From the NCBI GenBank assembly GCA_963842235.1, contig CAWJFT010000001.1, positions 882,368 to 946,367 on the forward strand: a DNA stretch of 64,000 nt, given 5' to 3'. The notes under the pieces are model-generated. The model was not told the DNA's origin, ran no database searches, and saw only the letters and a list, made by a program, of their open reading frames with translations. The position numbers and the translations under genes are program-made. Positions 17,038 through 24,768 of the stretch are shown here, piece by piece (positions within the stretch are counted from its first letter, which is position 1; each line of letters begins with the position of its first letter). This DNA comes from an uncultured Actinomycetes bacterium. GTDB taxonomy: Bacteria > Actinomycetota > Thermoleophilia > Gaiellales > Gaiellaceae.

Positions 17038-20431
<3,394 letters not shown>

Positions 20432-20450
20432 CGTCGCGTTTACGAAGTAG

Positions 20451-20475
20451 GCACGAAGCGGTTTCTCCTTCGTGC
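20451..20475 (+). terminator. hairpin downstream of pyrG (8-bp stem GCACGAAG/CTTCGTGC, 9-nt loop)
   Basis: Perfect inverted repeat read directly from the sequence. No U-tract follows, so the terminator function is tentative. Confidence 0.3.
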
Positions 20476-20488
20476 GGCCGTTGTCCAT

Positions 20489-21391
20489 ATGGTAAACGGC
20501 ATGAAGAAATCAAACCTCATAGTTCTGGGAGCGGCGTTGATGGCCCTGCTGGCGGTGCCCGCTTCGACTGCTGCCGGCGGCCCGGGCAAGGTGAACATCG
20601 TCCCCGCCGACTGCGGCGACAGGTACGACAATGACGACGACGGGAGGGTTGACTACCCAGCCGATCCGGGCTGCACAAGCTCTTCGGACGGCGACGAGTG
20701 GAATCCACCGCCGCCACCACCTCCGCCTCCTCCGCCACCGCCTCCTCCTCCACCGCCTCCAGCCTGCTCCGATGGGGCAGACAATGACGGCGACGGGTTC
20801 AACAACTACCCGAGCGATCCGGGCTGCTCATCTGCTTCGGACAACGACGAGTGGAACGACTGGGCCTCGCTGGCAGAAGTGGGGACGTTCACCTGGGGCG
20901 AAACGTCGTATGCCTGCGGGACGGCCGGTGCGGATGCGAACCAGTGGTACGCCCCGGGAGTCTTGGCGGACAGCATCCCGCCCGGCGACGGCCTCACGGG
21001 AACAGCGGTAGATACTTTCTGCCCGCTGTCCACGTCGCGGTGCAAGAAGCAGGTCTGGGAGACCGAGATGATCCAGAAGCTGACCCCGTGGGGCCCGAGC
21101 TACCGGGCGCTGACGTTCAAGGGCTTCTACAGCGTCTGCTACCGCTACAACGACGGCATCGTCACGGTGAAGGGGCGAGCGGCCGACTGTTACGCCCCGC
21201 AGGTGCCGTGGCAGTGCAACGGAATCGCTGAGGGATACCCGTGGCACTACCGTGCCGCGAAGTACGTCGAGTTTCACTACCGCATCAAGGCTTGCATCCA
21301 GGGCAGCGGTTGCACCGTCGGACGCCAGCCGTGGGTGACGATTACGTTCTTCGACAACAACACGCAAAACTTCACTCAGGGTCTGGCATGA
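20489..21391 (+). CDS. orphan secreted Cys-rich protein with two acidic DNDxDG modules and a poly-proline spacer
   Basis: Signal peptide MKKSNLIVLGAALMALLAVPASTAA (alternative ATG 20501). It has two 31-aa repeats, 19 consecutive Pro codons, and a 170-aa C-terminal domain with many Cys/Trp/Tyr. I recognise no family for the C-domain. Confidence 0.75.
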   Translation: MVNGMKKSNLIVLGAALMALLAVPASTAAGGPGKVNIVPADCGDRYDNDDDGRVDYPADPGCTSSSDGDEWNPPPPPPPPPPPPPPPPPPPACSDGADNDGDGFNNYPSDPGCSSASDNDEWNDWASLAEVGTFTWGETSYACGTAGADANQWYAPGVLADSIPPGDGLTGTAVDTFCPLSTSRCKKQVWETEMIQKLTPWGPSYRALTFKGFYSVCYRYNDGIVTVKGRAADCYAPQVPWQCNGIAEGYPWHYRAAKYVEFHYRIKACIQGSGCTVGRQPWVTITFFDNNTQNFTQGLA

Positions 21392-21474
21392 ACACCGTCA
21401 AGTGGATCCTCATCGGAGCGGTAGTCGTCTTCGGCGTGATGATCTATCTCTCGTACATGGTGACGATGGGCTAG
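21388..21474 (+). CDS. 28-aa single-TM micro-protein
   Basis: ATG overlaps the upstream stop (ATGA). MNTVKWILIGAVVVFGVMIYLSYMVTMG is one hydrophobic helix. A terminator-like hairpin follows. Confidence 0.45.
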   Translation: MNTVKWILIGAVVVFGVMIYLSYMVTMG

Positions 21475-21493
21475 TCCCGTCCGTCGTTTTCTT
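21462..21493 (+). terminator. intrinsic-terminator-like hairpin plus T-run
   Basis: GACGATGGG / CCCGTCCGTC stem (one bulge, one G:U), 5-nt loop containing the stop codon, then GTTTTCTT. Confidence 0.4.
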
Positions 21494-21706
21494 GCAGGCA
21501 GGCTGAGTGGCTCGGATCGTCGGCGCCTATCAACCGCCTCTAACAGAACGAAGCCTTGTGCCGCCCTGCTGCGCTGGGCGGCGCGAGGCTGCGTCCTCGG
21601 TCTCGCCCGTATCCCTATACGAACGAGACGCTGCGTCGTTCCCTCGCACCACCCATCGCACCCGGACGACGAAGCGTCATTCAGTTAGAGGCTTAGGATT
21701 CTGCGC

Positions 21707-22840
21707 ATGTCGCCAAGCTGGGCGCCGGACGTCGTTGCGCTCTTCACCGAGCTGGCCGCCATCCCGAGCCCACCTGGCTCGGAGCGTGCGGTCGCGGACC
21801 GCGTCGCCGCCTACCTCCAGGATCTGGGCCTCGCGGTGTCCGAGGACGACGCGGGCGCCCGAATCGGAGCGAGTGCGGGAAATCTGCTTGCCCGGCTCGA
21901 GCCTTCGAGCGCGAACGGCGGCACGCCGATCTTCCTCTGCGCTCACCTCGACACGGTTCAGCCGACTGGGCCGCTCGAGCCAGTGGTCGAAGACGGGATC
22001 GTCCGGAACGCGGGCGGAACGATCCTCGGCGCCGACAACAAGGCCGCGGTGGCCGCGATGCTCGAGGCCGTCCGCCTGATCCTGTCCGAGAACCGTCCGC
22101 ACGCCGGCATCGAGCTCCTGTTCACGCCGAAGGAGGAAGTCGGGCTCCAGGGCGCCAAGGCGTTCGACGCAGAGCGGCTGGAGGCCGGAGTGGGTTTCGT
22201 CTTCGACCACGCCGCTCCGATCGGGGAGGTCATGTTGGGGGCTCCTCACGCACGAGCGCTCGACGCGACGATGCGAGGGCGCGCGGCCCACGCAGGCATT
22301 GCGCCCGAGGAGGGCCGCTCGGCAATCGCCGCCGCGGCCCGCGCGATTACCGATTTCCGCCTCGGTCGCCTGGACGACGAGACCACGGCGAACGTCGGGC
22401 TGATCGAGGGTGGGACGGCCAAGAACATCGTTCCCGAGCGTTGCACCTTCAACATCGACGTCCGTTCGCACGACGAGCGAAAGCTCGCCGACCTCGTCCA
22501 GGAGATGCTCGAGACGATCACGTTCGCCGCGGCCCTCGAGCAGTGCGAGGCGGAGACGACGGTGGACGAGAGCTATCGCGGCTACCGCTTAGGCCGCGGT
22601 GATCTTCCTGTTCGGCTGGCTTGCGCCGCGCTCGAGCGGGAGGGGTTTCAGCCGCGGCTCGCTTTGGGCGGGGGCGGCGCGGACGCGAACATCTTCAACG
22701 AGCGCGGCCGGCCGTGTGTCAACCTCGCGAACGGGATGAGCGCGATCCACACGCCCGACGAGCACATCGCCGTCGCGGATCTCGAGCGGATGGTCGACGT
22801 CACGCTCGCCCTGGTCGACGTGGCGCGCGACGCGTCTTAG
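21707..22840 (+). CDS. M20-family metallopeptidase (peptidase T-like)
   Basis: CAHLDTV, GADNKAAVA, FTPKEEVGL, GGTAKNIVP, IHTPDEH. Confidence 0.85.
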   Translation: MSPSWAPDVVALFTELAAIPSPPGSERAVADRVAAYLQDLGLAVSEDDAGARIGASAGNLLARLEPSSANGGTPIFLCAHLDTVQPTGPLEPVVEDGIVRNAGGTILGADNKAAVAAMLEAVRLILSENRPHAGIELLFTPKEEVGLQGAKAFDAERLEAGVGFVFDHAAPIGEVMLGAPHARALDATMRGRAAHAGIAPEEGRSAIAAAARAITDFRLGRLDDETTANVGLIEGGTAKNIVPERCTFNIDVRSHDERKLADLVQEMLETITFAAALEQCEAETTVDESYRGYRLGRGDLPVRLACAALEREGFQPRLALGGGGADANIFNERGRPCVNLANGMSAIHTPDEHIAVADLERMVDVTLALVDVARDAS

Positions 22841-23646: not shown

Positions 23647-24768
23647 ATGAACGTCGGCGTCCCCAAGGAGATCAAGCCGGACGAGTACCGCGTCGCGCTC
23701 ACGCCGGCAGGTGCGCTCGAGCTCACCCGCGACGGCCACTCGGTCGTGGTCGAGCAGGGAGCGGGGGAGGGCAGTGCCTTCAGGGACTCCGACTACAGCA
23801 GCGTCGGAGCGCGAATCGGCTCCGTCGCGGACGTTTGGGAGGCCGAGCTCATCCTCAAGGTCAAGGAGCCGCTGCCCGAGGAGTACACGAGGCTGCGCGA
23901 GGGTCAGGTGCTCTTCACCTACCTCCATCTCGCCGCGAGCGAGGATCTGACCCGGGCGCTGATGGAGAGCGGCGCGGCGTGCGTCGCATACGAGACCGTG
24001 GAGACGGACGACCGCGCGCTTCCGCTCCTCGCGCCGATGAGCGAGATCGCCGGCCGCCTTGCGGCGCAGGCCGGTGCGGCGTTCCTGGAGAAGCCGGTCG
24101 GTGGCCAAGGGCTCCTCCTCGGAGGCGTCCCGGGCGTGGCGCCGGGCGAAGCGGTGGTGATCGGTGGAGGGATGGTCGGCTACAACGCGGCCGTGATCGC
24201 GCTGGGGCTCGGCGCGCAGGTCACGATCCTCGAGCGCTCCATCGATCGGATGCGGCATCTGGAAGAGGTGCTCGGGTCGCGCGTCACGCTCCTGATGTCG
24301 TCCGGCCTCCAGATCCAGGAGTCGGTCGCGCATGCCGATGTCGTCATCGGCGCGGTGCTCATCCCCGGCGCGCTGGCGCCGAAGCTGATCACCCGCGAGA
24401 TGGTCGCCGGCATGAAAGACGGCTCAGTGATCGCCGACGTTGCGATCGACCAGGGCGGCTGTGTGGAGACGTCACGACCGACGACGCACTCTGAGCCGGT
24501 CTTCGTCGTCGACGGCGTCATCCACTACTGCGTCGCGAACATGCCCGGTGCCGTTCCGATCACCTCTACGAAGGCGTTGACGAACGCCACGCTGCCGTAT
24601 GTCGAGGGGATCGCGAACGAGGGTCTCCGCGAGGCGATCGCCCGTGATCGCGCGCTCGCGCGGGGTGTGAACGTGCTCGAAGGGAAGGTGACGTACGAAG
24701 CTGTGGCCGAAGCACACGGCCTCGACTTCACCCCGCTGGACGAGGTCCTCAGGTTCTCCCCGGTCTAG
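23647..24768 (+). CDS. ald: alanine dehydrogenase
   Basis: MNVGVPKEIK..EYRVALTP, VKEP, GGVPGV..VIGGGMVGYNAA, DVAIDQGG, HYCVANMPGAVP. Confidence 0.95.
   Translation: MNVGVPKEIKPDEYRVALTPAGALELTRDGHSVVVEQGAGEGSAFRDSDYSSVGARIGSVADVWEAELILKVKEPLPEEYTRLREGQVLFTYLHLAASEDLTRALMESGAACVAYETVETDDRALPLLAPMSEIAGRLAAQAGAAFLEKPVGGQGLLLGGVPGVAPGEAVVIGGGMVGYNAAVIALGLGAQVTILERSIDRMRHLEEVLGSRVTLLMSSGLQIQESVAHADVVIGAVLIPGALAPKLITREMVAGMKDGSVIADVAIDQGGCVETSRPTTHSEPVFVVDGVIHYCVANMPGAVPITSTKALTNATLPYVEGIANEGLREAIARDRALARGVNVLEGKVTYEAVAEAHGLDFTPLDEVLRFSPV

Follow-up and report, generated by a model that had tools for sequence, protein, structure and literature searches.

Gene Content of the pyrG–Peptidase Interval

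The window, a stretch of 64,000 nucleotides (nt) that corresponds to G000:C1:882368-946367 in the 2.6-Mb genome (69% G + C) of a bacterium that its relatives place among the uncultured soil Gaiellaceae (Gaiellales, Actinomycetota), contains between the genes of CTP synthase (pyrG) and a PepT-like M20 peptidase a short segment that codes for a putatively secreted protein and a membrane micro-protein. It represents a single allele of a hypervariable cassette locus that had not been described before and that comprises new domain families as well as a conserved micro-protein. The features of the interval and its borders are listed below in window positions (aa, amino acids; ORF, open reading frame).

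18779-20431, + strand: pyrG (CTP synthase), which borders the slot on the left; matches to Pfam CTP_synth_N (2e-125) and GATase; aa identity within the genus 85-99%
20488-20493, + strand: TATGGT, a -10-like hexamer of the form TAnnnT, 7 nt before the ATG at 20501 and inside the palindrome at 20477-20500
20501-21391, + strand: secreted-protein gene (leader, acidic repeat, Pro19, acidic repeat, type-A C-terminal domain); its ORF opens at 20489
20501-20566, + strand: resident leader, a predicted Sec-type signal peptide, MKKSNLIVLGAALMALLAVPAS; the similarity of type-B relatives stops at 20566 (blastn against G022, G043, G006, G023, and L004)
20568-21526, + strand: recently exchanged cassette that comprises the mature protein, the micro-ORF, and the terminator; over 960 nt it shares 96.7% nt identity with L004
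20612-20704 and 20765-20857, + strand: two acidic double-disulfide (DxDxDG-type) repeats of 31 aa each, flanking 19 Pro codons (20705-20761)
20861-21388, + strand: type-A C-terminal domain, 176 aa; core from RCKxQ to the FxDNNT motif at ~21038-21388 in the alignment of C-terminal domains
21388-21474, + strand: 28-aa micro-protein with a single transmembrane segment, MNTVKWILIGAVVVFGVMIYLSYMVTMG; its ATG overlaps the upstream TGA (ATGA); 100% aa identity in L004
21465-21491, + strand: terminator-like hairpin (21465-21481) and T-run at the end of the cassette, from a consensus scan; kept in L004
21535-21692, no strand: dispersed repeat of 158 nt, similar to a miniature inverted-repeat transposable element (MITE), with the terminal inverted repeats GCCTCTAAC/GTTAGAGGC; located ~15 nt ahead of the start of the M20 gene
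21707-22840, + strand: PepT-like M20 peptidase, which borders the slot on the right; TIGR01883 with 332 bits (cutoff 274), Pfam M20/M20_dimer

The initial annotation had described a 300-aa gene for a protein with a signal peptide, two acidic modules, a poly-proline spacer, and a Cys/Trp/Tyr-rich C-terminal domain, followed by a coupled micro-ORF and a terminator-like hairpin, and all of these elements were found again. The 300-aa ORF (20489-21391) is real, the micro-ORF encodes one transmembrane helix and starts in the ATGA overlap, and the consensus scan recovered the hairpin with its T-run, which is weak; about 230 nt separate this region from the peptidase gene. Among 11 relatives whose cassette is likewise in "+" orientation, it is the second ATG, at 20501 (MKKS..., 296 aa), that is conserved as the start, and the upstream ATG at 20489, which gives the 300-aa product, occurs only in the window and in G043. 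A TAnnnT hexamer was present 7-8 nt upstream of the conserved ATG in 11/11 aligned sequences. Its position fits the -10 box of a leaderless mRNA that probably starts with the ATG at 20501, and the region 20501-21474 is a two-gene operon that is probably transcribed from this box. The palindrome at 20477-20500 (CCATATGG), to which the initial annotation had also pointed, does exist, with 15-nt arms that are 87% complementary, but the alignment of the 11 relatives revealed no conservation of it as a palindrome, and it is read as largely incidental. An operator was rejected as its main reading, since the TAnnnT hexamer is conserved and the palindrome is not.

The leader consists of MKK, a 16-residue hydrophobic core, and then PAS/TAA (n/h/c layout judged by eye), and is common to the relatives; neither a lipobox nor a sortase motif was seen by eye in the protein. 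Sequence features support the earlier proposal of a secreted or surface factor. The acidic repeats are also direct DNA repeats (D2/D4, spacing 153 nt). They resemble NF033662/thrombospondin type-3-like Ca-binding repeats in their C-x-D-x-x-D-N-D-x-D-G-...-D-P-G-C pattern, and two stretches match the NCBIfam model NF033662 (22.2 bits, E 8.5e-5). Unlike NF033662 proteins, the window protein has two copies only, remains below the whole-protein cutoff of 41, and has no match to Pfam TSP_3 at E <= 1; TSP_3 does match longer type-A relatives. Most of the 196 first-pass matches to the protein cover only the acidic repeats, a module that is widespread in extracellular proteins; few share the C-terminal domain, at 42-55% identity.

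Domain Types and the Coupled Micro-Protein

No match for the C-terminal domain was found in Pfam, NCBIfam, PADLOC, or PHROGs, and searches of the same libraries yielded nothing for the types B and C described below or for the micro-proteins. The view that no family can be assigned thus holds for these libraries, but the description as an orphan does not. A region-restricted word search with the domain found the 97% relative only, and it was an exhaustive search with a profile of 13 C-terminal domains against 1.84 billion cluster representatives that revealed a family of 86 representatives sharing the domain (type A; 70 at E < 1e-10). The type-A domain ends at the protein C-terminus in nearly all 86 representatives, and the longer ones examined start with a signal peptide, followed ahead of the domain by stalks of varying make-up (acidic repeats, TSP_3, fn3, Ig-like, poly-proline). 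All genome matches of the family are Gaiellaceae or soil Actinomycetes metagenome-assembled genomes (MAGs). The AlphaFold2 model of type A is all-beta, with a predicted local distance difference test (pLDDT) score of 86.8 and a predicted template-modeling (pTM) score of 0.82. A Foldseek search with this model gave nothing significant in the PDB (best E 0.31, TM score <= 0.26) and no significant neighbor in BFVD, and a hidden Markov model search of the PDB sequences with the type-A domain had no match. Weak structural matches to latexin, cystatin-like, and pore-forming proteins were not significant and were not used. Instead of an orphan, these analyses depict a confidently predicted fold that lacks a PDB neighbor and defines a small, uncharacterized family. 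Conservation is concentrated on Cys, Pro, Gly, and aromatic residues and on the RCKxQ and DNNT motifs, and four disulfides are predicted for the type-A domain.

Type B is the commonest type, with ~100 clusters that are all annotated "hypothetical." Its model (pLDDT 88.6) is also all-beta and has an eight-strand order equal to that of type A; Foldseek found no significant PDB neighbor for it (best E 0.086, TM score 0.42, a hypothetical protein). Comparison of types A and B by hhalign detected no profile similarity; the two share the motif hydrophobic-C-aromatic...G-x-I-T/V. Types A and C are distant homologs (88% probability, E 3e-6). Confident folds that lack a structural match characterize the two or three new domain families of the locus. 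Selection within types is purifying: the ratio of nonsynonymous to synonymous substitution rates (dN/dS) ranges from 0.07 to 0.13 and is 0.13 for the window gene compared with its 97% relative. At these values a point-mutational arms race is unsupported.

A 27-41 aa ORF with a single transmembrane segment overlaps or abuts the type-A stop codon in 17 of the 18 loci examined, including loci away from pyrG (L070, where the neighbor is a rhomboid gene; L071, with an integrase gene and an ABC transporter as neighbors; L072, L051, and L052), and a transmembrane micro-ORF is also found with the distant relative P0078 (L054). As a control, the 46 genes of the window were inspected in the same manner, and only the secreted-protein gene has a coupled transmembrane micro-ORF (Kyte-Doolittle value over 17 residues 2.39, next highest 0.78). 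Between the window and the 97% relative, the micro-ORF differs by one synonymous change and zero replacement changes. The class of micro-ORF follows the domain type, with 27-41 aa next to type A and 46-58 aa including an acidic GGxxPxDGRGDTIEQ tail next to type B. Since the reading frame of the micro-ORF relative to the main gene varies among loci (offsets -21 to +11), the micro-protein is translated separately by coupling, and a fusion to the main protein by programmed frameshifting or readthrough was rejected. Genuine micro-proteins of 27-58 aa are well supported, and gene callers mostly missed them in the loci examined.

Further variation was observed in the stalk. Many alleles of the genus carry, directly after the leader and with any type of C-terminal domain, the motif C-x-C-(Y/W)-D-P followed by 25-45 prolines (L028-L048; for example in G052, G016, and G044), and the poly-proline stalk reaches ~45 residues in loci of the genus. 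Runs of 25-45 prolines should depend strongly on elongation factor P (EF-P). An extra domain of ~110 aa with the motif GW(L/F)D.V...G...GW.CDP(D/N)....L.(V/I)HFY.DG and no Pfam match lies between poly-proline stretches, upstream of the type-A or type-B domain, in L027 (G009), P0128, P0129, and P0156. Three loci from long-read MAGs, L037 (G010), L046 (G015), and L045 (G051), have a cassette gene with an apparent frameshift or truncation; either the gene is truly decaying there, or homopolymer errors have arisen in its proline tract, which is rich in CCN.

A Genus-Wide Slot with Exchanged Content

The DNA downstream of pyrG was surveyed in 35 other genomes of the genus, and a complete slot was obtained for the window and 33 of these. 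The distance from pyrG to the peptidase gene is 670-1610 nt, and the slot is occupied in 34/34 complete genomes. A signal-peptide gene of the same module class was identifiable in 33 of them (none was callable in G051), and most slots also contain the coupled transmembrane micro-ORF. The slot thus is kept across the genus, usually with another type of C-terminal domain or another orientation than in the window. At least three domain types (A, B, and C) occur, and the module can lie in either orientation relative to pyrG. When types and orientations were mapped on a tree of the M20 peptidase from 33 genomes, at least eight type switches and at least three orientation changes were counted, and different types are carried by the members of the sister pairs window (A+)/G022 (B+), G049 (C+)/G021 (B+), and G007 (A-)/G012 (B-). 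Phase-variable inversion was considered for the orientation changes and rejected, as orientation follows phylogeny with ~3 changes and neither flanking inverted repeats nor an invertase was seen.

In 20 other genera of the family the module is absent, and in 11 of the 20 the peptidase gene follows pyrG after 30-100 nt. At the remaining junctions other insertions were observed, such as a vapBC-like PIN toxin/antitoxin pair, a TrmB-like regulator, and a small lipoprotein (L096 of G057, L087 of G161, L086 of G172, and L080 of G162). In view of these 20 genera, the pyrG-pepT junction is a family-wide insertion hot spot, and the secreted-protein module is specific for the genus. The initial annotation had depicted an islet inserted between core genes, which is half right: with a slot that is occupied in 34/34 genomes, what is observed is the replacement of alleles at a fixed hypervariable locus and not a one-off insertion.

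How the alleles are replaced can be seen in alignments with close relatives. Compared with G022 (92% nt identity), G043, G006, and G023, homology extends until the end of the leader at 20566 and resumes at 21535 or 21691, so that the similarity to these type-B relatives returns only past the micro-ORF and the terminator. L004 is a metagenomic contig that is syntenic with the window over 12 kb. Its flanks are 77-92% identical to the window (mean 86%; synonymous divergence dS 0.49-0.65), whereas the cassette itself (20568-21526) has 96.7% identity and a dS of 0.11. Owing to this discordance, the cassette must have been exchanged between species-level lineages long after their divergence, which indicates a recent transfer, and the sharp breakpoints together with the discordance speak for replacement and not for gradual divergence. 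As a separate observation, the 20279-20566 region (last 150 nt of pyrG, spacer, and leader) has 81.5% identity to G022 versus a flank average of 92%; divergence from G022 is raised directly beside the replacement breakpoint.

Remnants of former alleles were identified in several relatives; the slot of the window itself contains none. In L004 (6067-6307; P0001), the leader is followed in frame by the N-terminal half of a type-B domain and then by the acidic repeats and the type-A domain. This in-frame chimera occurs on five metagenomic contigs and is apparently tolerated. In L025 (G042, oriented 151-590), a new type-A cassette is followed by an orphan leftover of an older type-A domain, namely its 52 C-terminal aa (75% identity to G016), together with the 40-aa transmembrane micro-ORF that belonged to this older domain, and extra micro-ORFs are present in G009 and G046.

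There is very little doubt that the architecture and evolutionary dynamics of the locus are those of a two-gene operon at a fixed-address replacement locus, which is swapped as a unit between species. Promoter and leader stay resident, and everything from the mature protein to the micro-ORF is exchanged as one piece by interspecies recombination; occasionally, pieces of the allele that was displaced are left behind, either in frame or downstream. The product is predicted to be an exported, disulfide-rich protein in which the leader is followed by acidic repeats of Ca-binding type with a rigid Pro19 spacer and by the all-beta type-A domain. The 28-aa micro-protein would be stoichiometrically coupled to it and inserted in the membrane with its N-terminus inside and its C-terminus outside.

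Base Composition

The segment had been described as AT-richer than its surroundings, and calculation of windowed G + C confirmed this impression: the region 20440-21706 has a G + C content of 62.9%, compared to a window mean of 69.2% (standard deviation 1.7), and is the minimum of all sliding 1267-nt windows in the 64 kb. Codon usage gave a different picture. With regard to synonymous codons, the whole gene is no outlier among the 46 genes of the window (z = -1.3), and the C-terminal domain scores above the window mean and is host-typical. The G + C content at third codon positions (GC3) is 0.79 for the ORF and 0.84 for the C-terminal domain alone (46 window genes, 0.86 ± 0.04), whereas the value of 0.58 at first positions (GC1) is the lowest of all 46 genes (mean 0.73), and the poly-proline run is rich in CCA and CCT codons. 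The low G + C content thus stems mainly from the amino acid composition, from the use of CCA and CCT for proline, and from the DNA between the genes, of which the 158-nt repeat is a part. It is no sign of a compositionally foreign donor, as codon usage is host-like, and with a deviating G + C content but ordinary synonymous codon usage the segment does not qualify as a compositionally foreign island. The proposed horizontal acquisition therefore stands on the identity discordance with L004, but not on the compositional evidence that had been put forward for it. More generally, a "low-GC islet" can arise from amino acid composition alone, and real exchange was visible here only via identity discordance.

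Possible Functions of the Cassette

The organization of the locus resembles polymorphic toxin systems (contact-dependent inhibition, CDI, with CdiA-CT/CdiI; Rhs; Sec-dependent systems), which consist of a leader, variable C-terminal toxin domains, and a downstream immunity gene (Zhang et al., 2012; PMC3482391). The protein starts with a predicted Sec leader, as judged from its sequence, and the same leader/linker part is combined with unrelated C-terminal domains, that is, with type A in the window and type B in G022 and G043 (breakpoint at 20566). A small downstream gene, the transmembrane micro-ORF, co-varies with the domain in nearly all loci. Also as in these systems, the cassette is replaced by recombination and exchanged between lineages, with displaced remnants or orphan modules in G042, L004, G009, and G046. 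By analogy, we tentatively propose as the most likely function, at slightly less than an even chance, that the cassette codes for a Sec-secreted polymorphic effector and for a micro-protein of the membrane that confers cognate immunity. Once outside the cell, either set free or on display, the beta-domain would target the envelope or membrane of related bacteria. The producer would be protected by the transmembrane micro-protein inherited together with the effector, and frequency-dependent selection would keep several incompatible types circulating.

There are clear differences from known systems, though. Unlike in polymorphic toxin systems, the partner is a micro-protein of 27-58 aa with a single transmembrane segment and not a soluble immunity protein, types A, B, and C match no known toxin family or fold, and a single locus per genome, whose orientation flips, is fixed genus-wide between two housekeeping genes. 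Circular-bacteriocin operons contain small hydrophobic immunity peptides of ~50-60 aa, and the cassette likewise combines an exported, leader-bearing protein with a coupled, very small, type-specific membrane protein. Unlike bacteriocins, however, the exported protein is a multi-module, disulfide-rich beta-protein of 12-30 kDa with a poly-proline stalk, dedicated transporter or modification genes are absent from the cassette, and it has no sequence similarity to bacteriocin operons. Replacement-type flexible genomic islands, a concept of Rodriguez-Valera, contain alternative gene sets for exposed cell-surface structures. The cassette shares with these islands one chromosomal position, alternative non-homologous genes, and exchange through conserved flanks, but comprises only ~1 kb with two genes and no glycosyltransferase-type content, and because the leader is kept, only a part of one gene is replaced.

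Several observations weigh against an effector and immunity pair. Neither the library searches nor Foldseek nor the PDB sequences revealed similarity of the C-terminal domain to any known toxin, bacteriocin, or defense family or fold, and the type-A alignment lacks conserved catalytic-type residues and shows a pattern that would suit a binding domain equally. Toxin loci usually are patchy, whereas this locus is universal and single-copy in the genus. Stalks of poly-proline, TSP_3, fn3, and Ig-like modules are also typical of surface adhesins, and 28 aa are, to our knowledge, unusually small for an immunity protein.

Some of these points would fit the main rival explanation, a variable surface-display or binding module, which we consider possible but rather unlikely, with a lectin/adhesin-like beta head on a stalk of poly-proline and acidic repeats and the micro-protein as membrane partner or tether. 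With the same reserve, the short extracellular tail of the micro-protein (S-x-T-L/V-like) might add as a strand to the domain, and phage or predator pressure on the exposed structure could, again as a doubtful option, drive replacement as in the flexible genomic islands. A universal, single-copy locus, purifying selection within types, conservation that is aromatic, Pro-, and Cys-rich but lacks a catalytic signature, and stalks like those of wall-spanning surface proteins (poly-proline to ~45 residues, TSP_3, fn3, Ig) all are consistent with such a module, and translational coupling would provide the micro-protein, which co-varies with the domain type, in a 1:1 ratio. However, the protein seems to start with a signal peptide that can be cleaved off, and with neither lipobox nor sortase motif seen by eye the stalk would lack an evident anchor. 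If the end with the C-terminal domain were tethered instead, the minimal proteins (leader, poly-proline, and domain) would have no other functional part. The orphan micro-ORFs in G042, G009, and G046 also are more in line with immunity, but might simply be leftovers. A fast-evolving extracytoplasmic housekeeping pair for envelope maintenance or metal/Ca handling, with the types as divergent orthologs and the micro-protein as assembly or regulatory factor, is improbable. It would agree with the presence of the locus in the readable genomes of the genus, with the distant homology of types A and C, and with the predicted eight-strand order and the hydrophobic-C-aromatic...G-x-I-T/V motif shared by types A and B. 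It is difficult to reconcile with sister species at 92% average nucleotide identity (ANI) that carry types unrelated in sequence, with sharp breakpoints and an identity discordance (96.7% vs. 86%) that demonstrate replacement, and with the lack of the module in the other 20 genera examined, in which pyrG is followed directly by the peptidase gene or by other inserted genes. The literal reading of the initial annotation, a one-off, compositionally foreign islet with an orphan gene from a distant donor, has hardly any probability left. The G + C minimum and the lack of a family in curated libraries agree with it, but codon usage is host-like, amino acid composition drives the low G + C content, the slot is occupied across the genus, and the 86 representatives of the family have genome matches only in Gaiellaceae or soil Actinomycetes MAGs.

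We lean towards the view that Sec-exported, disulfide-rich beta-domain effectors and type-specific micro-proteins (27-58 aa, a single transmembrane segment), which are traded as a unit at a fixed genus-wide locus, form a new class. If toxin and immunity functions are correct, the locus would represent a new lineage of polymorphic toxins, and no smaller immunity proteins would be known; with the micro-protein as a tether, it would represent a new "split membrane anchor" mode by which Actinobacteria display proteins on their surface. The Gaiellales, Actinobacteria that are abundant in soil and rarely cultured, have been very little studied with regard to cell surface and competition. This two-gene locus of ~1 kb is a conserved genomic address, and its typing in metagenomes could serve to trace conflict between strains or pressure from phages.

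A Dispersed Repeat Upstream of the Peptidase Gene

The initial annotation had also noted about 210 nt of apparently non-coding DNA in front of the peptidase gene. This stretch is real, but most of it is the 158-nt repeat, which is present in four copies in the genome. Comparison of the filled and empty sites revealed no clean target-site duplication, and no relation was found to the 225-bp MITE at 24766. The predicted RNA fold of the repeat is stable (-83.4 kcal/mol, z = -6.5), and an Rfam search of 20300-21900 yielded only chance matches to miRNA models below threshold. A riboswitch or leader RNA of the peptidase gene was rejected, because no Rfam match was obtained and the structured 158 nt are a dispersed repeat. 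The terminal inverted repeats are perfect over 9 nt within imperfect arms of 24 nt. The other copies are located at G000:C3:238949-239109, C3:467624-467787, and C3:72551-72709, with 87-88% identity among copies and unrelated flanks. The repeat occupies the same site in G043 and G006, whereas the site is empty in G022 and G023, and it is thus polymorphic between species. Being short and non-coding, with terminal inverted repeats, several dispersed copies, and presence/absence polymorphism, the element behaves like a MITE that was inserted ~15 nt upstream of the peptidase start.

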